From: an uncultured Gammaproteobacteria bacterium
GTDB taxonomy: Bacteria > Patescibacteriota > Patescibacteriia > VMEV01 > CAYQCH01
Assembly (NCBI GenBank): GCA_964503955.1
Contig: CAZDCG010000001.1
Span: 316,210 to 380,209, forward strand
DNA: 64,000 nt
Direction of reading: 5' to 3'
Shown here: positions 106-63,789 of the stretch, in pieces
Layout of the letters: each line of letters opens with the position of its first letter
How positions within the stretch are numbered: the first letter of the stretch is position 1
Translations under genes and position numbers: made by a program
Notes under the pieces: model-generated
What the model saw: the letters and a program-made list of their open reading frames with translations, nothing else
What the model was told of the DNA's origin: nothing
Databases searched by the model: none

Positions 106-221
106 AGGGGGCTACTGTTCTTAGATTGAATTGATTTATCTAGAGTTTATAGGTTTTAGTTTATAGGTTTTAGCCAAGGGTTGAAACTGAAAACTACAAC
201 CTAAAAACTACAACCTAACCT
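106..221 (+). promoter_or_regulatory. rpmI-rplT intergenic leader with two short tandem duplications (tttataggttttag x2; aaaactacaacctaa x2) and no SD before rplT
   Basis: Direct reading of the sequence. The last 13 nt, aacctaacctATG, are shared with the trpS upstream region. Confidence 0.3.
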
Positions 222-5371: not shown

Positions 5372-5447
5372 GGACCGGTGGTGTAGCGGTTAACATGCCT
5401 CCCTGTCACGGAGGAGATCGCGGGTTCGATTCCCGTCCGGTCCGCCA
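5372..5447 (+). tRNA. tRNA-Asp (anticodon GTC)
   Basis: GGACCGGTGGTGTAGCGGTTAACATGCCTCCCTGTCACGGAGGAGATCGCGGGTTCGATTCCCGTCCGGTCCGCCA. The cloverleaf, CTGTCAC anticodon loop, GTTCGATTC T-loop and encoded CCA are very close to E. coli tRNA-Asp. Confidence 0.9.
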
Positions 5448-6628
5448 CGAAGAGCCCCGTATTCACGGGGTTTTTCGTTTTGGGGCGCGGGCGTGTTGCC
5501 CACGGGTTGCCCAAGGATTGCTGAAGTCGGCGCCAGTGTCGGCGTGAGCGGCCCCAACTGGAAGACGAAGGACGATACCTCTCGCGCCGGCGAGAGCGGC
5601 CGACGGTCAAGCCGATCGACGAACTCCTTGAGGCGAGAGGGCTCGAGGTGGCTGTAGCGCATGGTGACCCGAATGTCACTATGGCCCAGCAGTTCCTGCA
5701 CGACCTTGAGGTGAGCGCCCGTTGCCACGAGGTGCGAGGCGAAGGTGTGGCGCAGTACATGCCACCCGACTTTGCGGAGGCCGGCAGCGGCGCACGCTTG
5801 CTTGAGCACGCGCGCCATGGCGTCTTGGTCCGAGTGCTTGCGGCCCGCGTCTTGCCCGAAGACAAAGCCCCTGCGGTGCGGCCATGCCCTCAGTGCTTCC
5901 TTCACGTCCTCGCTGAGCGGCACGTGGCGGATCTTGTTGCTCTTGGGAGGGCCGAGGCGGCGTCTCACCAGTGCCCGCCTCACCGTCAGCAGGCTCCCCT
6001 CGAGGTCGACGTCGGACCAGTCCAGCGCCAGCAGCTCTCCCAGGCGGAGCCCGGTGCGCATGGCGACGAGCACGACTCCACGCCAGAACGTGTCCTTCAT
6101 GCTCCGCAAGAGACGTTCGCTCTCCTCCAGCGTGAGGAAGTCGAACGCCTGAGGTGGAACGGGAAGAAGCCGGATCTTCGGGCGGCGGTCGAGCTCGCCC
6201 CACTCCTCGGCAATGCTAAGAGCCCGGCCGAGGGCGGCCAGGTAGTTGTTGACGGTCTTGGGCGCATAACCCTCTGCGCGCCTCGCCGCCTTGAAGCTCT
6301 CGATCAGCTTGGGGGAGATCTCATCGAGCCCGCACTCCCCGAAGAAGGGCAAGAGCTGACGGTCCAGAATAGACCGCTTCGTGCGCTGCTCGGAGTGGCG
6401 GTTGTTGGGCACGACGTACTCTCGGTACCACCGCTCGGCGAACTCCGCGAAAGTGGTGGCCTTGACGACAGGTGCGTCTGGATCAAAGCCGAGCGCGAGC
6501 TGGCGGCGGAAGTAGGTTTCGTACGCGGCAGCGCCCGCCCGGCTGCTTTCCGGGCTCTTGCGGCGATAGCGGATGCCAGCGTGGCGGAAGTCAATCCACC
6601 AGCGGTTGCGGATCTTGCGAGCGCTCAT
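5390..6628 (-). CDS. int: tyrosine-type site-specific integrase (phage-integrase family)
   Basis: Core-binding and catalytic domains with R...HVLRHTFASHLV (HxxR)...RVTMRYSHL (catalytic Tyr). The ORF runs with no stop through the att core and into the tRNA on the opposite strand, so the last ~60 codons are probably not authentic or reflect the recombinant junction. Confidence 0.9.
   Translation of the reverse strand: MSARKIRNRWWIDFRHAGIRYRRKSPESSRAGAAAYETYFRRQLALGFDPDAPVVKATTFAEFAERWYREYVVPNNRHSEQRTKRSILDRQLLPFFGECGLDEISPKLIESFKAARRAEGYAPKTVNNYLAALGRALSIAEEWGELDRRPKIRLLPVPPQAFDFLTLEESERLLRSMKDTFWRGVVLVAMRTGLRLGELLALDWSDVDLEGSLLTVRRALVRRRLGPPKSNKIRHVPLSEDVKEALRAWPHRRGFVFGQDAGRKHSDQDAMARVLKQACAAAGLRKVGWHVLRHTFASHLVATGAHLKVVQELLGHSDIRVTMRYSHLEPSRLKEFVDRLDRRPLSPAREVSSFVFQLGPLTPTLAPTSAILGQPVGNTPAPQNEKPREYGALRGGPDGNRTRDLLRDREAC
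5424..5448 (+). repeat. attL core (within tRNA-Asp 3' end)
   Basis: Exact 25-nt match to 9326-9350. Confidence 0.85.
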
Positions 6629-6894
6629 GGGGTGTTGTCGTCAACGGAGCCCACGCGGTGCTTGGCCAAGTAGGCCGCCAGGTCCTCCCGCGAGAAGCGC
6701 AGACTGCGGAGTACGCGGTGGAAGGGCAGCCGGCGCTGCTCCACAAGTCTGTAGACGCTGGCCCTGGAGATACCCAGCTGGCGGGCGACCTGGTCTGGCG
6801 TGAGGAGAAGGGGCGGCAAGGCGTGGTCCGGACGATGATGCCGTGGTTGGGCCGAATTGCGCAAATCCGGACTGTGGATAAGATCGTTGAGCAT
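6625..6894 (-). CDS. xis: excisionase/AlpA-like helix-turn-helix DNA-binding protein
   Basis: LLTPDQVARQLGISRASVYRLVEQRRLPFHRV is the HTH_17/Xis signature; overlaps the int start by 4 nt (xis-int operon). Confidence 0.7.
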   Translation of the reverse strand: MLNDLIHSPDLRNSAQPRHHRPDHALPPLLLTPDQVARQLGISRASVYRLVEQRRLPFHRVLRSLRFSREDLAAYLAKHRVGSVDDNTP

Positions 6895-7074
6895 GTTTTA
6901 TGTGGCTAAGGCTAGCGGAGAATCTATGTCCTCCCGCCCGGCAGGGACACGAACCTCGGTCGGTGTCCCTGCCAGGGTGACGGCGGCGCGAGGTGCGGCC
7001 GCACAGGCGCGAGGGCGCCCGGGAGGTGGCCAGCGGTGAGCTGGCCACGCCCGTGCCCGGGCGCTTCCGACCGG

Positions 7075-7635
7075 TCACGAGCTTGGCCTTCTCGTAGGCG
7101 GGAGAATCTTCTGCTCAATCAGATATGCCGCACCCACGGCTGCAGCGTCGAACATGTTGAGCCAGAAGGTCTCCTTCCACGCGTGGGTCTGGATCTTGTA
7201 AATCGCTAGTTCGGGGTAACGACGAATGATCTCGGTGGCGACAGTGGGCTTCTTGGCGTTTCCGTTCAGGCAGAGAATCGCTCGCGCTGAGCGCGGGGCA
7301 TACTCGACGACCAAGCCGTCGACGACGACGACCCGCTGCTCTCCGCTAGTGCGGACCGTCACCCGGTCGTTCACGACGACGGCGTCGCCGCTTCCGGGCT
7401 CGAGATCGAAGAACGTCTGCTGCTCGTCTTGGCTCACCCGGCAATCGTGCCTTACGGCCTCGTTGCCGCAAGGCAATAACGGGACACGTTCTGGTCCGCG
7501 CAATTGCCCGAGCGCTCCCGGGCCAAGCCCGCCTGTAGCGGCATCAGCAGGCGCTACGAGCCGCCGGCGGAGTCGAAAGGCGGACACATTGCGGTCCGCA
7601 GCTACCCGGCTGCCAGCCCTGCTACGACAGGGCAT
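7075..7635 (-). CDS. island cargo, hypothetical protein (start uncertain; the N-terminal ~60 codons may be non-coding)
   Basis: Only non-low-complexity frame in GC-rich DNA; the C-terminal ~110 aa (VVVNDRVTVRTSGEQRVVVVDGLVVEYAPRSARAILCLNGNAKKPT...IYKIQTHAWKETFWLNMFDAAAVGAAYLIEQK) is globular-looking; no family recognised by eye. Confidence 0.35.
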   Translation of the reverse strand: MPCRSRAGSRVAADRNVSAFRLRRRLVAPADAATGGLGPGALGQLRGPERVPLLPCGNEAVRHDCRVSQDEQQTFFDLEPGSGDAVVVNDRVTVRTSGEQRVVVVDGLVVEYAPRSARAILCLNGNAKKPTVATEIIRRYPELAIYKIQTHAWKETFWLNMFDAAAVGAAYLIEQKILPPTRRPSS

Positions 7636-7975
7636 GTCAGGAGGTCTGGAGTCTGGAGGAGGTGCGCGCCCACTTCCGGCGCCGCCTCGACGCCTACGTC
7701 TGCGAGGTCATGACCGAGCGCGCGTCCGCGCGCGCGGCGCTGGCCCCCAGGAAGGCCGACGATCGCAGCGCGACACTCCCCTACGGCTGCGGGACCTACT
7801 GGCTGGTCCGCTTCCACGGCGCGTCATGCGAGCACGCCCCGCCGGCCTGAGCGGCGAGCCGGGCCGCCGCGACGCGAGGCGCCCGGCGCGAGCGAGCTCG
7901 ATTGCGCGGCGCGCAGGCCGAGCGTGGATCGACGGAGCGCTGGAGCTCGCGGACGGCGCGGCAGTACCTGCCCAC

Positions 7976-8611
7976 TCACTGACCAGGACGAGGCGGAGCA
8001 TGCGCGAGAGCACTGAACTCGCCTACGTTCTGCATGGCATAATCAATAAGGCAATCATAAACGCGATCGCACTCGCCCTCAAAATTTAGAAACACCCTAC
8101 CCACAACGGTATCCTCCAAGCGCCCGTCGTATGCCCCGATACTCTCCAAGAACTCTCGACGTGCGTCGAGGTCTAGATGGGGATTTGGCCCTGGGAATGC
8201 GGCTACCGCCTCCGCCAAGTAACGAGCGGCATCGCGTGCCCCTATCTCCTCCAATGCCTGCACAAAAACAGAATACGACGGATTCCCGCCCCCGGCGAGA
8301 AGGTAGCAGTAGGCGTCGAGCAGAAACGGCTTGGCCTGGTCGAAGTCGAGCCAGATCAGGGCGTCAGCAATTTGACACCGCTCGCCAAAGTCGGCAAAAT
8401 CAAGAACGCTCACGTGGGGTGTTTCCTCGTGGGCCAGGATCCAGTTTACGCTGGACCTGGGGTAGCAGGTGGCTCCACCGCCTGCTGCCCGAACCCAGCA
8501 CTTGATCCCCCTGGCAGCCCTGGCGCAGTCAGGGGGTTTTCGTTGCAGGAGGGCGTGATCGATAGGCCGAGGGTGCTGCACCCGGCAAAAACAACGGACA
8601 GCATGGCACAA
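7976..8611 (-). CDS. island cargo, hypothetical protein (likely starts at the internal GTG near VSVLDFADF; ~145 aa)
   Basis: Conserved-looking region ...LDFADFGERCQIADALIWLDFDQAKPFLLDAYCYLLAGGGNPSYSVFVQALEEIG...; the N-terminal part of the long ORF is Cys/Arg-rich junk typical of wrong-frame GC-rich DNA. Confidence 0.4.
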   Translation of the reverse strand: MCHAVRCFCRVQHPRPIDHALLQRKPPDCARAARGIKCWVRAAGGGATCYPRSSVNWILAHEETPHVSVLDFADFGERCQIADALIWLDFDQAKPFLLDAYCYLLAGGGNPSYSVFVQALEEIGARDAARYLAEAVAAFPGPNPHLDLDARREFLESIGAYDGRLEDTVVGRVFLNFEGECDRVYDCLIDYAMQNVGEFSALAHAPPRPGQ

Positions 8612-25653: not shown

Positions 25654-25709
25654 AATTAGGTCTGTAGCCTTTGCCTACAGCCTACGACCTACTGCCTATC
25701 ACCTGATTT

Positions 25710-26855
25710 ATGGCTTCAGACGATCTCCTCTCCCGCTTTGACGCTTTGCTCGCGCCCTATGCCGTGCACAATGCAGGCGACCATCACCGCGCGTACAAAG
25801 AAGACGCACATCCCGACAAACTGCCGTTCGCGCGCGACCGGGATCGTATCGTGCATTCCAAGGCATTTCGCAGACTCAAACATAAAACCCAGGTAATCGT
25901 CAGCCCAAAAGACGATCATATCCGCGACCGCTTAACTCATAGCCTTGAAGGGGCCCAGATCGCGCGCAGCCTTTGCCGTTCCCTGCGGCTCAACGAAGAT
26001 CTAGCGGAAGCGGCCATCCTTGCCCATGATCTTGGCCATCCCCCGTTCGGCCATGAAGGCGAATACGCGCTGCATGAAATGCTTGAGCCGCTCGGATTTG
26101 CTTTTGATCATAATGCTCATGGCGAGCGCATCGTTACCTTGCTTGAGAAACAATATCCGGATTTTCCCGGATTGAACCTGACGCGTGAAACGCTGGCGGC
26201 TATTCGCAAACATCACGTACCGTGGGAAGATCCAAAAGCCACGCTGCCGCACCAGGCAAGCATTGAAGCGCAAATCGTCAATCTCGCGGATGAAATCGCC
26301 TACTACTCGCATGATATCGACGACGGGCTGCGCGCGCATTTGCTGAGAATCGAAGACCTGCTTGAATTGCAGATCGGCCGGGCCGTGCACAAAGTGATTG
26401 AAAAGCGCTATCCAAACCTTACGACCCATGACCGGCTCTATCGGCCGCAATTCGTCCGTTTCGTGATCCACCTGCTGATTGCTGACATTGTCAAAACAAC
26501 GGAACGGAATGTGCGCGACAAACAAATCTCTTCTCTGGCTGATGTCTACGCGCTTGATCATCCGGTCGCATCCTACAGCAAGCAGATGGATGACATGACC
26601 CAGGAACTGAGAAACTACCTGTATAAAACGTTCTATAGCTCTGAACCCGTTCGACGTTTCACGCAAGAAGGCCGCGAGCTTTTGCAGGAATTGTTTACGC
26701 AGCTCTATCAACGCCCGGAACATCTTCCCCAGCATATCCGCGAGCAGATCGACACCCTTGAACCGCGAGCCATTGTGGTCAAAGACTATATCGCGGGCAT
26801 GACCGACCATTTTGCCAAGGAGATGGTGTATAAGTTGAGAGGAAGCTTGGTATGA
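25710..26855 (+). CDS. dgt: dGTPase-like HD-domain triphosphohydrolase
   Basis: HSLEGAQIARSL...HDLGHPPFGHEGE HD motif of the dGTP triphosphohydrolase family. Confidence 0.85.
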   Translation: MASDDLLSRFDALLAPYAVHNAGDHHRAYKEDAHPDKLPFARDRDRIVHSKAFRRLKHKTQVIVSPKDDHIRDRLTHSLEGAQIARSLCRSLRLNEDLAEAAILAHDLGHPPFGHEGEYALHEMLEPLGFAFDHNAHGERIVTLLEKQYPDFPGLNLTRETLAAIRKHHVPWEDPKATLPHQASIEAQIVNLADEIAYYSHDIDDGLRAHLLRIEDLLELQIGRAVHKVIEKRYPNLTTHDRLYRPQFVRFVIHLLIADIVKTTERNVRDKQISSLADVYALDHPVASYSKQMDDMTQELRNYLYKTFYSSEPVRRFTQEGRELLQELFTQLYQRPEHLPQHIREQIDTLEPRAIVVKDYIAGMTDHFAKEMVYKLRGSLV

Positions 26856-27280
26856 CGGGTACAAATCACCAATCGGATACAAATTTACAAATATCCGGCG
26901 GGAAAGTCATTCACAAAGAACTAAGTTATACGATCGTAGGAATCCTGTTTGATGTTTACAATGAGCTTGGATATGGGCATAAAGAGAAGTATTATGAAAA
27001 CGCAATTGCCGTTGCTTTTGATACGAGGGGGATTAGTTATGAAAGACAAAAAAGAACGCCACTTTTCTTTCAAAATGCAAAAATAGGTGATTATTATTTA
27101 GATTTTCTCGTAGAAGAGAAAATTGTTTTAGAATTAAAGCGGGGAAATCGTTTCCCAAAATCACACATTGATCAAGTTATGGGTTATCTGAAACAGACGG
27201 GACTTCAACTGGCCATTCTCGCGACATTTTCTGTTGACGGTGTTAAGTTTCTAAGAGTTCTAAATGGAGTTAAAGAGTAG
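26852..27280 (+). CDS. GxxExxY family protein (PD-(D/E)XK-like; rRNA-IVS-associated family)
   Basis: ...ELSYTIVGILFDVYNELGYGHKEKYYENA...YYLDFLVEEKIVLELK... matches the GxxExxY family; the gene is bounded by ~36-bp terminal inverted repeats. Confidence 0.8.
   Translation: MTGTNHQSDTNLQISGGKVIHKELSYTIVGILFDVYNELGYGHKEKYYENAIAVAFDTRGISYERQKRTPLFFQNAKIGDYYLDFLVEEKIVLELKRGNRFPKSHIDQVMGYLKQTGLQLAILATFSVDGVKFLRVLNGVKE
26858..26895 (+). repeat. Left terminal inverted repeat of the GxxExxY cassette (gggtacaaatcaccaatcggatacaaatttacaaat)
   Basis: Reverse complement of 27280-27315 with 3-4 mismatches; near-identical copy at 48427-48460. Confidence 0.8.
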
Positions 27281-27315
27281 ATTTGTAAATTTGTAATGTA
27301 TTTGTGATTTGTACC
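27280..27315 (+). repeat. Right terminal inverted repeat of the GxxExxY cassette (atttgtaaatttgtaatgtatttgtgatttgtaccc)
   Basis: See the left repeat at 26858-26895. Confidence 0.8.
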
Positions 27316-27329
27316 CTTAATCATCCGCT

Positions 27330-31672: not shown

Positions 31673-32164
31673 ATGTCACAAACCGTTGCCGATGCCATGA
31701 ACGAGCGCGTCCACGGCAATACCATCCAGGATAAAATCGACGAAGATTACAAAGCGGCCTTCAAAGCCAAGGACGAACCGAGATTCAAGGCGCTACGCCC
31801 CGTGCTTGCCAAGCTGAAACAGGAAACCATTGACCGCCGCCATGAATTATCCGATGAAGAAATCCAGCAGGTATTGCGCACGGAAATCAAAAGCCGCAAA
31901 GACGCGACTGAACAGTTTAAACAAGGCGGCCGCGAAGATCTCGTTGAGCAGGCGGCCTATGAAATTTCCTTGATTGAAAGCTATCTGCCGGCCCAGATGC
32001 CAGACGAACATCTTGAAGCGATTGTCCGCGAAACCCTGGCTGCGATTGGCGCCTCCTCTCCTGCCGATATGGGCAAAGCCATGGGAGCTGTCATGGCCAA
32101 AGTGAAAGGCCAGGCTGATGGAGGAAGAGTAAAGGCTATGGTGGAGAAAGTGCTTAATGGATAA
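31673..32164 (+). CDS. yqeY: GatB/YqeY domain protein
   Basis: ...RFKALRPVLAKLKQETIDRRHELSDEEIQQVLRTEIKSRKDA...GKAMGAVMAKVKGQADG typical of YqeY; start at MSQTVAD. Confidence 0.8.
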   Translation: MSQTVADAMNERVHGNTIQDKIDEDYKAAFKAKDEPRFKALRPVLAKLKQETIDRRHELSDEEIQQVLRTEIKSRKDATEQFKQGGREDLVEQAAYEISLIESYLPAQMPDEHLEAIVRETLAAIGASSPADMGKAMGAVMAKVKGQADGGRVKAMVEKVLNG

Positions 32165-32165
32165 A

Positions 32166-32203
32166 GCTAAAAAGCTGAAAAACTCAAAAGCTTAAAAAGG
32201 CGC
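32166..32203 (+). repeat. Left inverted repeat flanking the four-helix-bundle gene (aaagctaaaaagctgaaaaactcaaaagcttaaaaagg)
   Basis: Reverse complement of 32655-32705 (gtctttatttttttagtttttcagctttttagcttttcagttttttg) matches with a few mismatches. Confidence 0.65.
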
Positions 32204-32276
32204 GGATGGTCCGGGCCTTTTTTGTGAATACGTGCTATAATTAATGCAAATTTAATTCTCTCTGCCCACACCTTTA

Positions 32277-32654
32277 ATGAATCATTTTATGAGTGGCGGA
32301 GCCTATAAGCAATTAGAAGACCGGACGACCATGTTTGCGATACAGGTTATCCGGTTTTGTCGTTCTGTAGGAGAAAAGCACTTATCAACAAGCATTGTTA
32401 ATCAAATAATACGCTCCGCGAGCTCTGTAGGGGCCAATTACAGAGAAGCAAACGAAGCCAAATCTCACAAAGAAAAGCTATACTTTCTTTATATCGTCAA
32501 AAGAGAGCTGAAAGAAACACAGTATTGGCTAGACGTGCTTGAGGAATTCGAAAATCCAACCATCGATTCTCAACGTAAAAACTTGCGAAAAGAGGTTACA
32601 GAATTACTAAATATTTTTATGAGTATCATTTTTTCCTTCCAAAAGAAAAAGTAA
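32277..32654 (+). CDS. four-helix-bundle protein (23S rRNA intervening-sequence protein family)
   Basis: ...IRSASSVGANYREANEAKSHKEKLYFLYIVKRELKETQYWLDVL... is the characteristic family signature. Confidence 0.8.
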   Translation: MNHFMSGGAYKQLEDRTTMFAIQVIRFCRSVGEKHLSTSIVNQIIRSASSVGANYREANEAKSHKEKLYFLYIVKRELKETQYWLDVLEEFENPTIDSQRKNLRKEVTELLNIFMSIIFSFQKKK

Positions 32655-32705
32655 GTCTTTATTTTTTTAGTTTTTCAGCTTTTTAGCTTTTCAGTTTTTT
32701 GAACT
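32655..32705 (+). repeat. Right inverted repeat flanking the four-helix-bundle gene
   Basis: See 32166-32203. Confidence 0.65.
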
Positions 32706-33694
32706 AATACCCCCACCAAAGTCTTTGCCTCCTCCACATCCCGCACCCACTTCACATCTCCATGCTTGCGCCACCAGGTCAATTGGCGCTTGGCATAGTT
32801 GCGCGTGACTTTTTTTGATTCTTCAATAGCCTGATCAAGCGTCCAGTTGCCTTGCAGATAGAATCCGATTTGCTGGTATGCATGCCCGGTCATGGCGACC
32901 ATATCGTACCCGTATTTCTCTCCGACGGCACGGACTTCTTCAACCAAACCGGCTTCAATCATTTTGTCGACACGGCCATTGATCCTCTCATAAACTTCTT
33001 CGCGGTCAACAACAGGCGCTAGATACAGCGCGTCAAATTTTGCCTCCAGCTTGCTTGGCGACTTAATCATTCTCCCCTGCTCAGCGATTTCAATCGCGCG
33101 GATAACACGTCGCCTATTCTGCACATCCACACGCCTTGACGCTGAGCGATCAACCGCCTCAAGACGCGCGATCAATTCAATATCAGACAGATCTTCAAGC
33201 TCTCTGCGCAGATTCGGATTGGGTTTTGCGTCAGGAATCTGCCAGTTTTCTAAAATCGCGGATGTATAAAGCGATGTCCCGCCGACAAGAATCGGCAATT
33301 TTCCGCGCGCAATAATTTCATTGATGATGCCAAAAGCCAGCAATTGAAAATGAGAAAGTGTCAGCAGTTGATCAGGGCGCACAACGCCGATCATATAGTG
33401 GGTGATTCCTTGCACGTCATAGACATTGATCAGTGCATCCTCAAGGCTGATTGGCGAATTTGTTTCTTCAAGTTTCTGTTCAATATCAAAAAAAGCTTTG
33501 TCTTTTGTGATCTCACGTGTGTCCGTCTGATGCCGCCCAGGTTCCTTATTGGTGCCAATATCCATTTCCTTATAAATCTGGCGTGAATCAACCGAAATAA
33601 TCTCTCCATCAAATTCCTTGGCCAAGGCCAAAGCCAGGTCAGATTTTCCTGACGCGGTCGTCCCGACAACAGCAATGACTTTCGGTTTATGCAT
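32675..33694 (-). CDS. miaA: tRNA dimethylallyltransferase
   Basis: P-loop VIAVVGTTASGKSDLA and ISVDSRQIYKEMDIGT motifs of MiaA. Confidence 0.9.
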   Translation of the reverse strand: MHKPKVIAVVGTTASGKSDLALALAKEFDGEIISVDSRQIYKEMDIGTNKEPGRHQTDTREITKDKAFFDIEQKLEETNSPISLEDALINVYDVQGITHYMIGVVRPDQLLTLSHFQLLAFGIINEIIARGKLPILVGGTSLYTSAILENWQIPDAKPNPNLRRELEDLSDIELIARLEAVDRSASRRVDVQNRRRVIRAIEIAEQGRMIKSPSKLEAKFDALYLAPVVDREEVYERINGRVDKMIEAGLVEEVRAVGEKYGYDMVAMTGHAYQQIGFYLQGNWTLDQAIEESKKVTRNYAKRQLTWWRKHGDVKWVRDVEEAKTLVGVLVQKTEKLKS

Positions 33695-36667: not shown

Positions 36668-36812
36668 AGAGTAGAGGGCATCTTAGAGGAAATCGGGTTT
36701 GAATTCAAGCGGGAAGACGCACAGACATAACAGACTCTACAGACGCACAGACTGTTTTTGGAAAATGTGATTTGTCTGTGAGTCTAAAACGTCTGTGAAT
36801 CTGTGCGTCTGC

Positions 36813-38228: not shown

Positions 38229-39995
38229 CTACGATCTCTCCTCAATCTCTTTTCTGACTTTCTCAATAAATTCTGCCTTCTCCATTTCCTCCGTTTGCTG
38301 CTGCCCCCTTCGGCGGATGGCAAGCTTGCCGCCGTCTTGTTCCTTATCGCCGATCACAAGAATATACGGCACCTTCATTTTCTCTGCTTCACGGATTTTC
38401 TTGCCGACCGTATTGTCAGACACATCCACAGCCGCACGGATACCTGCTGCAATAAACTCCTGCTGCAGGGTTTTAACAAAGTCCACATGCCGCTCGCTTA
38501 CAGCCAATAAACGCACCTGTTCTGGCGCAAGCCAGACGGGAAATGCGCCCGCATAATGCTCGATCAACAATGACAGGAAGCGTTCAACCGAACCGGTAAT
38601 CGCCCGATGCAGCATCACGACGCGCTCCTCTTCTCCCTTTTCATTCGTATAGGTCAGATTGAAGCGCTCAGGCAGGTTGAAATCAAGCTGAATAGTGGCC
38701 AGCTGCCAGTCGCGGCCAAGAGCGTCTTTAGCGATAAAGTCGATTTTCGGCCCGTAAAACGCCGCTTCGCCTGTTCCATCAATAAATTCCAGACCTTGGT
38801 CCTGAAGAATCCCTTTTAGCAACCCTTCCGCCCGTTCCCAGACCTCGGTATCGCCCAGATATTTCTCAGGCGCTTTTGGATCATGCGTTGAGAGGCGCGG
38901 CGTGAGCGGCATGCCAAGATTGGCATAGAGCTTACTGATGATATCGTACATTTTCAACGCTTCCTCCTTGATCTGATCCATGCGGCAGAAGACATGCGCG
39001 TCATCCTGGGTAATCGAGCGAACGCGCGAGAGTCCTTGTAATTGGCCGGTATTTTCGTCACGGTAGACGGTTGTCACTTCACTGTAACGCAGTGGAAGAT
39101 CACGATAACTGCGCGGCTGAGAGGCGTAAATCTGCGTATGATGCGGACAATTCATCGGCTTCATGATGAATTCGTCTTCGGTCATTTTCGATTTGATATG
39201 GAAAATATCATCCGCGAATTTCTGATAATGGCCGGAGGTTTTATACAAATCGGCTTTGGCCATATGCGGGATATTCACGCGCTGGTATCCATGCGGTTTC
39301 ATCAGTTCCCAGACAAAATCCGTGACAGCTTCACGCATGATAGTTCCGCGCGGAGTAAAGAGCGGCAGCCCCTGGCCGACCAGATCGGAAAAAGCGAAGA
39401 GATCAAGCTCTTTGCCAAGTTTTCGATGATCGCGCTTTTTTGCTTCTTCGCGCATGGCCAAAAACGCGTCGAGCTCCTCCTGCGTTGGAAAGGCCAAAGC
39501 GTAAACACGTTGCAGCATTTGATTGCGTTCATCGCCGCGCCAGTACGCGCCGGCAACACGATCAAGCTTGAATACGCCGGCTTCGCCGGTTTTCTGCGTA
39601 TGTCCGCCTTTGCAAAGATCGGTAAAATCGCCATGCGAATAGAAGGTGATTTTGCCGTCTTCAAGTTCATGGAGAATTTCTACTTTGTATGGCTGATTGC
39701 GTTCTTGAAAATACGCAATCGCTTCTTCCTTGCTCACCTCTCGTCCTTCAAACGGCAAATCCTTGTTAATGATTTTGCGCATTTCCTTTTCGATTTTTTT
39801 GAAATCGTCTGGAGTGAAGGTGTGGTCGGACTCAACATCGTAATAAAATCCGTCTTCAACCGCCGGCCCGATGGCCAGTTTGGTATTTGGGTACAGTTTC
39901 ATGATGGCATCAGCCATGATATGCGCCAAAGAGTGACGCATCTTTTCAATCTCGCTCATGTCTGCTGCTTTTTTTTCTCCAAAGGCTTTTGACAT
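38229..39995 (-). CDS. thrS: threonyl-tRNA synthetase (N2 editing + catalytic + anticodon-binding domains; no N-terminal TGS domain)
   Basis: HSLAHIMA editing motif, class II motifs, and the ...RDHRKLG... region; start set at MSKAFGEKK. Confidence 0.95.
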   Translation of the reverse strand: MSKAFGEKKAADMSEIEKMRHSLAHIMADAIMKLYPNTKLAIGPAVEDGFYYDVESDHTFTPDDFKKIEKEMRKIINKDLPFEGREVSKEEAIAYFQERNQPYKVEILHELEDGKITFYSHGDFTDLCKGGHTQKTGEAGVFKLDRVAGAYWRGDERNQMLQRVYALAFPTQEELDAFLAMREEAKKRDHRKLGKELDLFAFSDLVGQGLPLFTPRGTIMREAVTDFVWELMKPHGYQRVNIPHMAKADLYKTSGHYQKFADDIFHIKSKMTEDEFIMKPMNCPHHTQIYASQPRSYRDLPLRYSEVTTVYRDENTGQLQGLSRVRSITQDDAHVFCRMDQIKEEALKMYDIISKLYANLGMPLTPRLSTHDPKAPEKYLGDTEVWERAEGLLKGILQDQGLEFIDGTGEAAFYGPKIDFIAKDALGRDWQLATIQLDFNLPERFNLTYTNEKGEEERVVMLHRAITGSVERFLSLLIEHYAGAFPVWLAPEQVRLLAVSERHVDFVKTLQQEFIAAGIRAAVDVSDNTVGKKIREAEKMKVPYILVIGDKEQDGGKLAIRRRGQQQTEEMEKAEFIEKVRKEIEERS

Positions 39996-50866: not shown

Positions 50867-50883
50867 ACATGCTAATATTGCTC

Positions 50884-51278
50884 TTCACTACAAATTACAA
50901 ATTTTACGACGAATCTACAAATCGAGATTCAATACACGCATAAACTTACACCGGAACTAGTGAAGTTTGCCAGAATCGCCAATTGTGTTTTTGTCGTTTT
51001 TAAATAATCCTTGACCTGTTGGATATTTTTTCGAGAAAAATGATTACCTTGCTTTAACTCAAGGATAATTTTTCCTTCGACCAAAAAATCAAGATAGAAT
51101 GTCCCTATTTTCTTTTCTTTAAAGAACAAACGAGCGTGTAACTGACGTTCATATTCCATTCCCTTTTCATCAAGTTATAGACTTCAAAGAGAATTTCTAC
51201 AATCTGATAACTCAATTCACTGTAAATTACCTTCTGTTCTGACACTTGTAGATTTGAAGCCAATTTGTAATTCGTAGT
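50884..51278. mobile_element. Degenerate GxxExxY cassette (inverted-repeat bounded) inserted between pheS and pheT
   Basis: Inverted repeats cactacaaattacaaatt...aatctacaaatc (50884-50925) and cttgtagatttg...caatttgtaattcgtagtgg (51245-51278) flank a truncated GxxExxY ORF. Confidence 0.65.
50929..51159 (-). pseudogene. truncated GxxExxY-family gene (C-terminal half only)
   Basis: MEYERQ...FYLDFLVEGKIILELKQGNHF...QVKDYLKTTKTQLAILANF aligns to the C-terminal half of 26852..27280; the N-terminal GxxExxY region is missing. Confidence 0.6.
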
Positions 51279-51285
51279 GGAGAAA

Positions 51286-54468: not shown

Positions 54469-54756
54469 CGCCCGCCGCCACCGTCGCAAGACACCAAGAC
54501 CCCGATTCGTCATCCGTGACACAAGAATCGGGGTCTTCTACGTTTCTCCCTCGTCACCTTATCCTTAATCTTCCCCTTAAACGAAAAGGAGGAGAACCTG
54601 AAGGATAAGAAAAACAAGCAACCCGCGAACTCGCTAACCCGTTAACTCGTCAACACGTTAACGCTTTTGACAAATCCCCCACCCAAACCTACGCTGTAGT
54701 TACATCCTATCAGCGGTTTTCCTACAGCCTACCTCCTACCGCCTTGAACCTAACCT

Positions 54757-61112: not shown

Positions 61113-61190
61113 TGTTCACGTGTTAATGAGTTAACGTGTTAACGGGTTTGCCTTGAACGCGTTAACTCATGAACATGCTAACCCGTTAAC

Positions 61191-62900
61191 ATGTCCTACA
61201 ACGAACTTATCAAACAAATCGTCGCGCAACAACCGTCATCCAGAAACGAGATGCAGACGATCATTCGTACACATATCAAATCACGCGGAGCATCCTTTCC
61301 GCGTTTTTCGCATTTGCTTGAAGCCTATCGATCCTTGGTGGCCGGCAAGGAGCTTGAAGCGCAGCCCTGGCTTGAGCCGCTGCTTATCAAACGCGCGATC
61401 CGCACGCTTTCGGGCGTAGCGCCTGTCCATGTCATGACGGCACCGCTTGGATGTCCGGCCAATTGCCTGTACTGCCCGAATGAGCCGGGCATGCCCAAAA
61501 GCTATCTTTCCAATCAGCCGGGTTCCATGCGCGCGATTCTCAATGACTTTGACCCGTACAAACAAGTCACCATGCGGCTGCGCGCGCTCTATCAGAACGG
61601 ACACCATCCCGAAAAAATCGAATTGGTTGAAAATGGCGGAACATGGACCGCGCTGCCACGTCGTTACCGCACCTGGTTTATCACCCGCTGCTATCAAGCT
61701 GCCAATGATTTTGATCCTCAAGACTTTGTCAAAACAACGGACTTCATTCCGTCTAATAATTCCCGTTTGACGATTTTAAACCGGCTCAAAGAACAGCCTG
61801 ATCATCTGCTGAAAGCATCGCTGCGCTTGCATGACGAAGACGACGAGGATTTGCTTACCGAACTTTTTGCCGCGCAAAAGATGAATGAAACAGCCCGCTA
61901 TCGCATCATCGGCATCACGCTTGAAACCCGCCCTGACTGGCTGGCTGATGATGAAATCCATCACCTGCGTCTCATGGGCTGCACCAAGCTTGAGATCGGC
62001 GTACAAAGCATCAATGAAGAAGTATTGAAATGGAATAATCGCGGACATGGCGTAGAGGCAGTTATTAACGCGACGCAAGCCTTGCGCGACGCGGGCTTTA
62101 AAGTCGGCTACCATATGATGCCGGGGATGTTTAAGTCCACACCGGAATCAGACAAACAAATGTTTGTGGAGCTCTTCGCCAACCCCGCGTTTAAGCCGGA
62201 CTTTCTCAAAGTTTATCCTTGCGTTGTCGTGCAAGAAGCTCCTCTGTATAAACTCTGGGAGCGCGGTGAGTATAAACCCTATGAAGGAGACGAACTCATC
62301 GACGTACTGATTACCATTTCACAGACCTTCCCCCGCTATTGCCGCGTCGCGCGCCTCATTCGCGATATTCCTTCAGAAAGTATTTCGGGCGGGAATAAAA
62401 TCACCAATCTCAGAGAAGTCGTTGAGCAAAACATGCGCCAGCTTGGAATTGCTTCGCAAGATATCCGCGCTCGCGAAGTCATGGGCAATGTGCAGAATGA
62501 AGAACTGGCGCACAATGATCTCGTGTATGAAACCATCAACGGCGAAGAGCATTTCCTCAGCTTTGACGGGCAGGATTCCGACAAGCTCTACGCATTCCTG
62601 CGCTTGCGGCTCCCGCAAAGCAATTCCCATTTGATCAAAACAACCTTTCCCGAGCTGATGAATGCCGCGCTGATCCGCGAAGTGCATACCTATGGCAAGC
62701 TCGCGCGTATTGGAAATGACGATGAGACAAAGCAGGCGCAACACAAAGGACTTGGCAAACAGCTGATGGAAAAAGCCGAAGAGCTTGCGCGCAATCGTGG
62801 TTATAAAAAAATCGCCGTCATCGCCGGCGTGGGAACGCGCGAATATTATCGAAAATTCGGCTACGAGCTTGAGGGGACATATATGGTGAAACCGCTCTAA
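61191..62900 (+). CDS. Elp3-like radical SAM + GNAT acetyltransferase (tRNA U34 modification family)
   Basis: Radical-SAM Cys cluster (GCPANCLYCPN), a large radical-SAM core, and a C-terminal GNAT fold (...[41 protein letters not shown]). Confidence 0.8.
   Translation: MSYNELIKQIVAQQPSSRNEMQTIIRTHIKSRGASFPRFSHLLEAYRSLVAGKELEAQPWLEPLLIKRAIRTLSGVAPVHVMTAPLGCPANCLYCPNEPGMPKSYLSNQPGSMRAILNDFDPYKQVTMRLRALYQNGHHPEKIELVENGGTWTALPRRYRTWFITRCYQAANDFDPQDFVKTTDFIPSNNSRLTILNRLKEQPDHLLKASLRLHDEDDEDLLTELFAAQKMNETARYRIIGITLETRPDWLADDEIHHLRLMGCTKLEIGVQSINEEVLKWNNRGHGVEAVINATQALRDAGFKVGYHMMPGMFKSTPESDKQMFVELFANPAFKPDFLKVYPCVVVQEAPLYKLWERGEYKPYEGDELIDVLITISQTFPRYCRVARLIRDIPSESISGGNKITNLREVVEQNMRQLGIASQDIRAREVMGNVQNEELAHNDLVYETINGEEHFLSFDGQDSDKLYAFLRLRLPQSNSHLIKTTFPELMNAALIREVHTYGKLARIGNDDETKQAQHKGLGKQLMEKAEELARNRGYKKIAVIAGVGTREYYRKFGYELEGTYMVKPL
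62798..62900 (+). repeat. elp3 3' end, copy 1 of a ~92-bp direct repeat
   Basis: ttataaaaaaatcgccgtcatcgccggcgtgggaacgcgcgaatattatcgaaaattcggctacgagcttgaggggacatatatggtgaa is repeated at 63638-63730 with ~6 mismatches and one 1-nt deletion. Confidence 0.8.
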
Positions 62901-63730: not shown

Positions 63731-63789
63731 AGACTGGATCACGAGATCACCAGAACATGAAATCAAAGAGCAATGATCAAGGAGCAATG

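Follow-up and report, generated by a model that had tools for sequence, protein, structure and literature searches.

Described systems that come closest to the element reported here are intervening sequences (IVSs) in 23S rRNA and short-unit intergenic repeats. The element occupies positions 32163-32701 of a 64-kb stretch of Patescibacteria DNA (contig CAZDCG010000001.1; the stretch at its full length is called the window below), and consists of an open reading frame (ORF) for a four-helix-bundle (4HB) protein between two inverted arrays of a short repeat, its arms. The IVS of Coxiella 23S rRNA has a 28-bp terminal stem, a variable number of tandem heptamers in an arm, a sense S23p ORF that has been reported as decaying, and an RNase III cut in the stem (PMC4990558). 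Short tandemly repeated repetitive (STRR) sequences of cyanobacteria form 7-bp hairpins, including between hupS and hupL (PMC2670836), while inverted arrays of the heptamer GGGAATC are found in Xanthomonas (PMC4692102) and intergenic TAACTGA repeats in Beggiatoaceae (PMC4679880). Papers on the 4HB family report IVS protein (IVP) genes between cas genes and in rRNA insertions of the Candidate Phyla Radiation (CPR), with no mention of flanking repeats, and the profile PF05635 has been used to detect Avd (PMC10053308).

Set beside these systems, the window locus belongs to a widespread arm-ORF-arm class, as an old member passed on vertically, and it is very probably a discrete cassette of that class bounded by inverted repeats. 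The reading we favour, with reasonable though limited confidence, is that of an IVS-type mobile gene cassette outside rRNA, that is, a hairpin module with optional cargo which would be looped out as RNA when co-transcribed.

A four-helix-bundle gene between inverted octamer arrays

The cassette is placed exactly where the convergent stop codons of yqeY and miaA meet (YqeY, PF09424, 2.7e-48; MiaA, TIGR00174, 1.9e-63), with its ORF on the strand of the upstream yqeY (Table 1). The repeat unit of both arms is the 8-nt AAAGCTNA, inverted in one relative to the other (Tandem Repeats Finder: 32163-32199, 4.5 copies; 32658-32700, 5.4 copies), and the inverted-repeat core spans 27 nt on each side (32163-32189 and 32664-32690), of which 26 (96%) are complementary; when extended to about 36 nt, complementarity is 87%. 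The repeat strings quoted in the preliminary description were present, with coordinates that had to be corrected: the upstream repeat begins at 32163 and not at 32166, and the downstream repeat occupies 32655-32701 and does not reach 32705. With up to three mismatches allowed, the pattern AAAGCTNAAAAGCTNAAAA gave six overlapping matches in the window, all of them within the two arms (0.55 expected; none of 100 shuffles reached six), and the concern that the arms might be a common A-rich, low-complexity motif of the window was thus unfounded. Predicted folding of the RNA of 32150-32715 gave a 22-bp arm-arm stem enclosing the ORF in both the minimum free energy (MFE) and the centroid structure (z = -4.5 and -3.3 on the forward and reverse strands, respectively), as expected from the earlier suggestion of a gene inside a long stem. 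The stem closing the ORF measured 22-26 bp on either strand, and the duplex of left and right arms had an energy of -30.1 kcal/mol.

Table 1. Coordinates of the cassettes, their parts and the ORF-less hairpins in the 64-kb window
Feature	Position	Strand	Description
Left arm	32163..32199	+	4.5 tandem 8-nt units: AAAGCTAA AAAGCTGA AAAACTCA AAAGCTTA AAAAG; first base within yqeY TAA stop (32162-32164)
Terminator-like hairpin, bidirectional	32194..32223	.	A-tract, GGCGCGGA/TCCGGGCC stem with 1 mismatch, T-tract; dG -17.3 (+), -14.6 (-)
Extended -10-like element TGcTATAAT	32233..32241	+	36-44 nt 5' of first ATG; read from sequence
4HB ORF	32277..32654	+	PF05635 / TIGR02436; 125 aa from first ATG
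Right arm	32658..32701	+	About 5.4 units of complementary 8-mer (TTTAGCTT-type); core partner of left arm is 32664-32690
miaA last 8 codons and stop (QKTEKLKS*)	32675..32701	-	Encoded by right arm
GxxExxY (PF13366) cassette	26852-27321	+	Between HD-domain gene and tmk; ACAAATY-type heptamer arms, 41 nt, 83% complementary
Second GxxExxY cassette	50882-51283	-	In pheS-pheT operon, 2 nt past pheS stop and 15 nt ahead of pheT start
ORF-less hairpin	144-218		AGTTTAT/AGGTTTT units; before rplT
ORF-less hairpin	36715-36811		CAGACNNN unit; between two co-oriented genes
ORF-less hairpin	61114-61193		GTTAACNN unit; spans divergent spacer

The ORF scored above the curated cut-offs of both PF05635 (4.9e-16, 59.3 bits; cut-off 33.8) and TIGR02436 (6.5e-24, 84.2 bits; cut-off 24), which confirmed its assignment to the second of the classic IVS protein families. 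Its true start is likely the ATG at 32289 (MSGG..., 121 aa), since orthologs start with MSGRKY, the representative of the database cluster is 121 aa long and the structural model is disordered at residues 1-5. The AlphaFold model of the monomer consists of four helices, with a predicted local distance difference test score (pLDDT) of 90.4. Its best Foldseek matches, both of the S23p family, were 2RLD (BT_0352; template modelling (TM) score 0.80-0.86) and 2GSC (Xcc0516; about 0.8), followed by the Avd proteins 4DWL and 8UB7 of diversity-generating retroelements (DGRs), with TM scores of 0.70-0.83 at about 15% identity; the sequence profile matched 2RLD at 8.9e-32 and nothing else, Avd being out of its reach. 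Since 2RLD and 2GSC are both deposited in the PDB with five chains, the 4HB protein (S23p/IVP family, Avd-like fold) probably forms a pentamer by analogy. Avd is a pentamer that binds RNA and reverse transcriptase (RT), and the structural link offers a biochemical lead for the 4HB cargo. In PADLOC, the 4HB protein had no defence-system match, and the GxxExxY protein of the neighbouring cassettes gave only weak Cas4-like matches.

The arms themselves do not have the short GC-rich stem and U-tract of an intrinsic terminator, being AT-rich and 464 nt apart; only the hairpin at 32194-32223, which lies inside the cassette between left arm and ORF, fits that description. This hairpin was not listed by a consensus terminator scan and is not present in the orthologous cassettes of comparison loci L084 and L087 (see below). 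The TGcTATAAT element that follows it, which was not called in a -35/-10 promoter scan, is a possible promoter of the cassette's own. No rRNA gene was found in the window, where the only RNA gene is a tRNA (5372-5444); a loose motif scan of the 64 kb found no RT motif, and no RNase III signature was present in the window, which as part of a genome is silent on rnc.

Inverted arrays around homologous genes in many phyla

Flanking repeats were analysed at 80 loci with 4HB homologs, taken from one genome per species (79 testable), and at 80 further metagenome loci, among the matches listed and all at most 46% identical, which were used as an independent replication; comparison loci are designated by L-numbers. 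The phyla covered were Patescibacteria, Bacteroidota, Planctomycetota, Chloroflexota, Desulfobacterota, Verrucomicrobiota, Nitrospirota and others. Comparison of the two 250-nt flanks gave a best inverted repeat above all 100 shuffles at 67 of the 79 testable genome loci. Cognate arms paired with a median score of 38, relative to 19 for non-cognate pairs (left arm of one cassette with right arm of another; Mann-Whitney p = 2e-55), and 41 out of 74 genome loci and 42 out of 70 metagenome loci (the latter among the matches listed) scored above the 95th percentile of the non-cognate pairs. Pairing was above the unit-shuffled null in 63 of 84 cassettes, showing that the order of the units is mirrored between the arms. 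That the bracketing test was not trivially positive followed from distant GxxExxY relatives on viral contigs, where 1 out of 39 had a flanking repeat; all three CPR GxxExxY cassettes have one. The layout is therefore repeated around 4HB homologs in many phyla, in line with the general mechanism beyond one locus that the preliminary description had proposed.

The arms are cassette-specific inverted arrays, in most cases of 7-nt units: the best lag was 7 or 14 in 63 of 77 arms, with no periodicity in the interior of the ORFs, and the 8-nt period of the window copy is a minority variant in the family. Arm length had a median of 34 nt (10th-90th percentile, 19-57 nt), and the arms paired in the MFE structure of 80 out of 84 full-length cassette RNAs, over a median of 30 bp. 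None of 20 sampled cassette loci matched an rRNA gene or any Rfam family, so that rRNA-resident IVSs appear to be a minority of the 4HB family; 4HB and GxxExxY cassettes are especially common in the reduced genomes of Patescibacteria. A hexamer AAACAA (TTGTTT in the partner arm) was found in both arms of 31 out of 84 cassettes, relative to 5.2 expected (for example, L019, L026, L039, L047 and L061), and was rejected as a universal inner motif, being enriched only and missing from the window arms. At two loci (L033:2159-2199 and L044:2922-2962) the arms contain (CCCTAAA)n, identical to the plant-type telomere repeat.

Position and orientation relative to neighbouring genes were also regular. 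The left arm started a median of 5 nt past the upstream stop (interquartile range, -2 to 19), with the ORF beginning directly after it, and the right arm ended a median of 24 nt ahead of the next gene. Both gaps together approximate the usual intergenic spacer of these loci (median 30.5 nt), which suggests that the element inserts close to the stop of the upstream gene, leaving the leader of the downstream gene intact. The ORF was in sense to the upstream gene in 74 of 79 cases (94%) and to the downstream gene in 66 of 74 (89%), far above the 50% expected of a randomly oriented insert, and this held for either arm polarity. With respect to the latter, the left arm was A-rich in 54 cassettes, T-rich in 16 and neutral in 14; an A-rich-first arm as the determinant of host-sense orientation was rejected, as T-rich-left cassettes were co-oriented in 16/16 and 13/13 cases, so that orientation follows the ORF. 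Two other candidate properties were discarded: a role of the arms as suppliers of stop codons in all frames (20 of 84 left arms against 19.1 expected, many arms having no stops), and a missing Shine-Dalgarno sequence as a sign of special translation (10/113 cassette ORFs against 76/412 crude host ORFs), which was too weak.

A window-wide search for inverted repeats gave a total of three cassettes, namely the 4HB cassette, a GxxExxY cassette and a frameshifted second GxxExxY cassette (Table 1). Two cassettes in 64 kb had previously been taken to argue for a general mechanism; the generality stands, the count does not. Similarly, the arms of the 4HB and GxxExxY cassettes had been called unrelated in sequence, which is correct insofar as they are different variants, and incorrect insofar as all belong to one repeat class, consisting mostly of heptamers and specific to a genome or lineage. 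The ACAAATY arms of the window GxxExxY cassettes are of the same type as those of some 4HB cassettes elsewhere, and arm type is independent of the cargo. In the first GxxExxY cassette, the ATG of the ORF overlaps the stop of the upstream gene (ATGA) and is the only in-frame start, so that the left arm is apparently translated too and supplies the first 15-17 residues of the protein. The ORF of the second is broken into two frames and misses residues 21-38, while its TACAAAT arms are still 91% complementary, which points to cargo decaying within intact arms.

The three ORF-less hairpins of the window (dG -27 to -46 kcal/mol) occupy entire intergenic spacers, ending 1-3 nt from the gene boundaries. 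Single short-period intergenic arrays with no inverted partner nearby were observed at 25673-25704, 54628-54662, 54721-54744 and 63737-63789; among them, a CCTACMG-type unit occurs at two sites, and one GTTAAC-type unit is similar to those in the arms of the 61114 hairpin. An inverted repeat within thrS (38486-38913, 70% complementary) was judged a chance match. The GC content is 0.67 at positions 6001-8000, compared to about 0.50-0.55 in the remaining window.

Inheritance, mobility and rival explanations

The gatB-yqeY/miaA junction was compared in relatives with MiaA 64-79% identical, a comparison suggested at the outset, and was found occupied in four lineages (L084, L087/L088, L169/L170 and L083), with AAARCTNA arms alike, and empty in two (L171, with 13 nt between the two stops, and L172). 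The empty spacer of L171 (L171:2360-2372; taaacagctaatg) holds AACAGCTAA, which is near the arm unit AAAAGCTAA of occupied sites and, judged by this resemblance, could be an excision footprint or a seed of arms. In L085 and L086, the junction contains a different small ORF in place of the 4HB cassette (L085:5018-5520); it is GC-rich and has no inverted arms, its predicted product is small and rich in Cys, with a hydrophobic segment at the N terminus, and the strings AGCTAAAAA and AGCTGAAAAAAAAG near it may be arm remnants. The arms also reach into the neighbouring genes: the arm-encoded tail of MiaA is 8 aa long in the window, compared to some 3 aa in L084, some 10 aa in L087 and over 30 aa in L083, the MiaA proteins of relatives ending about 8 residues earlier or having other arm-encoded tails, and in L169 it is YqeY, not MiaA, whose reading frame extends into the left arm. 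In the closest relative, MiaA (L083:598-1707; 79% identical) has 369 aa, in an ORF that crosses the right arm into the antisense of the 4HB gene; this is probably either an annotation artefact or a real C-terminal extension caused by the cassette.

Among the orthologs, the 4HB ORF has a dN/dS of 0.09-0.15, with a proportion of synonymous differences (pS) of 0.6-0.8, that is, synonymous sites at or near saturation, and it is under purifying selection. The arms are complementary in every orthologous lineage despite this divergence, which implies active maintenance, whether by selection or by concerted evolution. The order of unit variants, read by hand, is mirrored within a lineage and different between lineages (second unit AGCTG/AGCTG in the window, ATCTG/ATCTG in L084 and ATCTT/ATCTT in L087).

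Evidence for movement came from related cassettes at non-orthologous sites. In six cassettes with proteins 80-94% identical and in unrelated contexts, similarity spans the region from the first left-arm unit to the last right-arm unit, with flanks that cannot be aligned. A cassette's own arm motif recurred within about 4 kb, at a level above all non-cognate arms, in 19 of 72 loci; one of these recurrences is another complete 4HB cassette, within one and the same operon (L041:727-1178), and two ORF-less hairpins (L030:4415-4523 and L116:3938-4044) have arms 91-100% identical to those of a 4HB cassette 1-1.5 kb away. As to an origin of ORF-less hairpins by internal deletion, the loops of the L030 and L116 hairpins contain no remnant of the cargo, and a further 'hairpin' at L122 is part of the cassette itself. 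ORF-less hairpins with cassette arms suggest that what the elements have in common is the hairpin module, with an optional ORF.

In the reading we favour, the window cassette would have been inserted into a 13-nt spacer between the convergent yqeY and miaA stops in an ancestor of this Patescibacteria lineage and inherited since. The arms would be the ends that count for spread, and it is rather probable that they are the determinant of mobility. The hairpin would be what propagates, with the ORF as optional or trans-acting cargo, a pairing that may be likened to MITE (miniature inverted-repeat transposable element)/transposon or REPIN/RAYT (repetitive extragenic palindromic doublet/associated tyrosine transposase) pairs; the hairpin is proposed as the propagating module because hairpins of the same arm families but without an ORF are found at gene junctions nearby. 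On a transcript that contains both arms, these would form a duplex of about 25-30 bp, the type of structure that RNase III cuts in 23S rRNA IVSs. Such a duplex would loop the insert out and bring the neighbours back to native spacing, whereby the element could be tolerated in operons, in sense and at little cost. This half of the model is drawn from the homology to rRNA IVSs and from the position of the elements, and a role for RNase III-type processing of the stem is put forward tentatively. The window copy would have turned into its own transcription unit, by means of the internal terminator-like hairpin and the extended -10 element, with the RNA stem forming only on read-through.

Several observations weigh against this reading or parts of it. 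For the window copy, a unit-shuffled right arm pairs almost equally well (observed score, 49; shuffled, 43.5 +/- 5.2; p = 0.15), a test that this cassette fails because its 8-mers are nearly identical, and taken alone it is compatible with a mirror copy as well as with two opposed arrays of a single unit. No further copy of the AAAGCTNA motif is present in the window, so that spread of this arm family within the genome is unsupported there. Transposase, integrase and reverse transcriptase are all absent in and beside the cassette; no target-site duplication was evident by eye at the boundaries, there being no very recent insertion for exact comparison, and the occupied and empty sites could reflect one old gain followed by losses, with no continuing mobility. 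The rise of arm similarity with cargo identity (rho = 0.48; distal flanks at background) is partly confounded by the relatedness of hosts, which may share repeat families, and by the about 36 nt of coding sequence included in the comparison, and the excess of sense orientation is modest (p = 0.002 and 0.056, respectively) when set against the 82% co-orientation of adjacent genes in the loci. Other points concern RNA. The cassette stem is equally favoured on the antisense strand, and the arm mismatches (66 G-U, 88 A-C and 224 of transversion type) include no excess of G-U, so that a sense-RNA stem under wobble-tolerant selection is unsupported and the arms bear no signature of RNA-specific selection. 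In addition, on both strands the hairpin at 32194-32223 stands between left arm and ORF, and the main transcripts may never contain both arms. The RNA half of the model is weakened by the absent wobble bias and by this internal terminator.

Some of these observations also fit an element acting at the DNA level only, with the arms as terminal inverted repeats (TIRs) of a non-autonomous, transposon-like cassette, or as recombination sites formed by single-stranded hairpins or cruciforms, served by an enzyme in trans; the RNA stem would then be incidental. Mismatches without G-U over A-C bias, stems equally good on both strands, sharp boundaries in unrelated contexts, an arm polarity that varies relative to the ORF and an internal terminator that would keep the arms of the window copy off one transcript all agree with such an element. 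It is at odds with the missing target-site duplication and transposase, additional selection would be required to account for the sense orientation and for the asymmetric placement 5 nt past one stop and 24 nt before the next start, and the homologous rRNA IVSs have been shown experimentally to be processed as RNA (PMC4990558). On balance, we regard a DNA-only element as unlikely, while still the strongest of the alternatives.

Less probable again is the reverse order of events, in which hairpins at host gene junctions came first, as STRR-like elements acting in transcript stability, translational coupling or termination, and selfish 4HB and GxxExxY ORFs homed into their loops. The ORF-less hairpins that fill spacers in the window would be such hairpins, as would those with cassette arms but loops free of cargo remnants, the published hairpins between hupS and hupL and the inverted GGGAATC arrays of Xanthomonas (PMC2670836, PMC4692102), and the AACAGCTAA in the empty spacer of L171 resembles an arm unit. 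However, where related cassettes occur in unrelated contexts, arms and ORF are shared as a single block with sharp ends, neither L171 nor L172 has a AAAGCTNA-type hairpin waiting at its empty site, and the arms extend into flanking genes and rewrite their ends, which an insertion bringing its own ends would be expected to do.

That the arms are iteron-like binding sites of a pentameric 4HB protein, with one unit per subunit, for autoregulation or for packaging of its own nucleic acid, is improbable. A median arm of 34 nt corresponds to about five heptamers and the window arms to 4.5 and 5.4 units, the structures that match most closely are homopentameric, and in the DGR complex nucleic acid is bound by Avd (PMC10053308); nevertheless, the same arm type brackets the unrelated PD-(D/E)XK cargo of GxxExxY cassettes, hairpins without any ORF exist, frameshifted cargo keeps intact arms, and arm length varies widely. 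Finally, chance complementarity of A/T-rich low-complexity tracts, or a generic terminator-like motif, in favour of which are the AT-richness of the arms and the unit-shuffle result of the window copy, is refuted almost beyond doubt by the restriction of the motif to the two arms, by conservation of these arms at the orthologous site of four lineages whose synonymous divergence is saturated, by the family-wide score of cognate arms and by the clean viral control.

Significance and comparison with known systems

Beyond the single locus, the IVS-type cassette leads to a wider proposal that we consider plausible, albeit somewhat short of even odds: a small mobile cassette class, undescribed and present in many phyla, would consist of inverted arrays of 7-8-nt units and an optional ORF of about 120 aa (4HB of the S23p/Avd-like type, or GxxExxY of the PD-(D/E)XK type), located in sense at operon junctions, hard against stops and starts. 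The 23S IVSs would be its rRNA-resident minority and STRR-like hairpins its ORF-less members, and the cargo would act on the arms in trans. If true, the 'hypothetical' 4HB/S23p and GxxExxY families, both of which are very large, and the unexplained intergenic heptamer repeats would come under one explanation, and the 30-year-old question of the nature and origin of rRNA IVSs would become testable outside the ribosome. The cassettes sit in essential operons (pheS-pheT and gatB-yqeY in the window) and rewrite the C-termini of neighbours, with a different MiaA tail in each lineage. Their arms produce spurious ORF extensions and may pass for CRISPR-like repeats, a possible contribution to the reports that place IVP genes 'in cas loci'. 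No description of the cassette layout outside rRNA was found in full-text searches that reached few subscription journals, so that a prior description is possible; there is a substantial chance that the bracketed 4HB and GxxExxY cassettes have not yet been described as a whole class.

Among known mobile elements, REPIN/RAYT systems and MITE/transposon pairs resemble the cassettes in that a gene is flanked by an inverted, hairpin-forming repeat that is also found without the gene in the same genome, and MITEs and other TIR elements do so in having terminal inverted repeats, here with sharp boundaries in six different contexts. The cassettes differ from REPIN/RAYT in their cargo, which is PF05635 or PF13366 and not a Y1 (IS200/IS605-like) or other recognisable transposase, and from both REPINs and MITEs in arms that are tandem arrays of short units and not a single palindrome, with no target-site duplication seen. 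Integron cassettes likewise carry a small, usually promoterless, co-directional ORF, with a hairpin-forming imperfect inverted repeat as the determinant of recombination; they have a single attC at the 3' end and are arrayed next to intI/attI. Here, in contrast, two long arms bracket the ORF, and the cassettes are single, scattered over operon junctions and without an integrase nearby. The Avd protein of DGRs shares the four-helix-bundle fold, at about 15% identity, but the neighbours of the window ORF are yqeY and miaA, and no RT, template repeat or variable repeat is nearby.

The STRR, GGGAATC and TAACTGA repeats match the cassette arms: their units, of about 7 nt, are tandemly repeated in intergenic spacers, are specific to a genome and often abut start or stop codons, and many are arranged in inverted pairs that could fold into hairpins between co-transcribed genes; the ORF-less hairpins of the window resemble these classes. 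The papers describing them report no enclosed ORF and no link to 4HB or GxxExxY (PMC2670836, PMC4692102, PMC4679880). From STRR sequences in particular, which are heptamers of filamentous cyanobacteria, the window copy differs by its 8-nt unit and its Patescibacteria host, whereas the wider cassette family uses 7 nt.

Compared to the 23S rRNA IVSs with an S23p ORF (Leptospira, Coxiella burnetii, Brucella and Xanthomonas), the window cassette differs in lying between two protein-coding genes, as do the sampled members of the family in being outside rRNA (0/20 within it), and it therefore lacks the defining feature of a 23S IVS. It further differs in having an ORF under purifying selection, compared to the ORF reported as decaying in Coxiella, and in containing an internal terminator and a promoter-like element in the window copy. 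At the level of sequence, no feature of the Coxiella element is missing from it; common to both are a PF05635 ORF carried in sense, a terminal stem of about 25-30 bp that encloses it and a similar element size, of about 430-540 nt.

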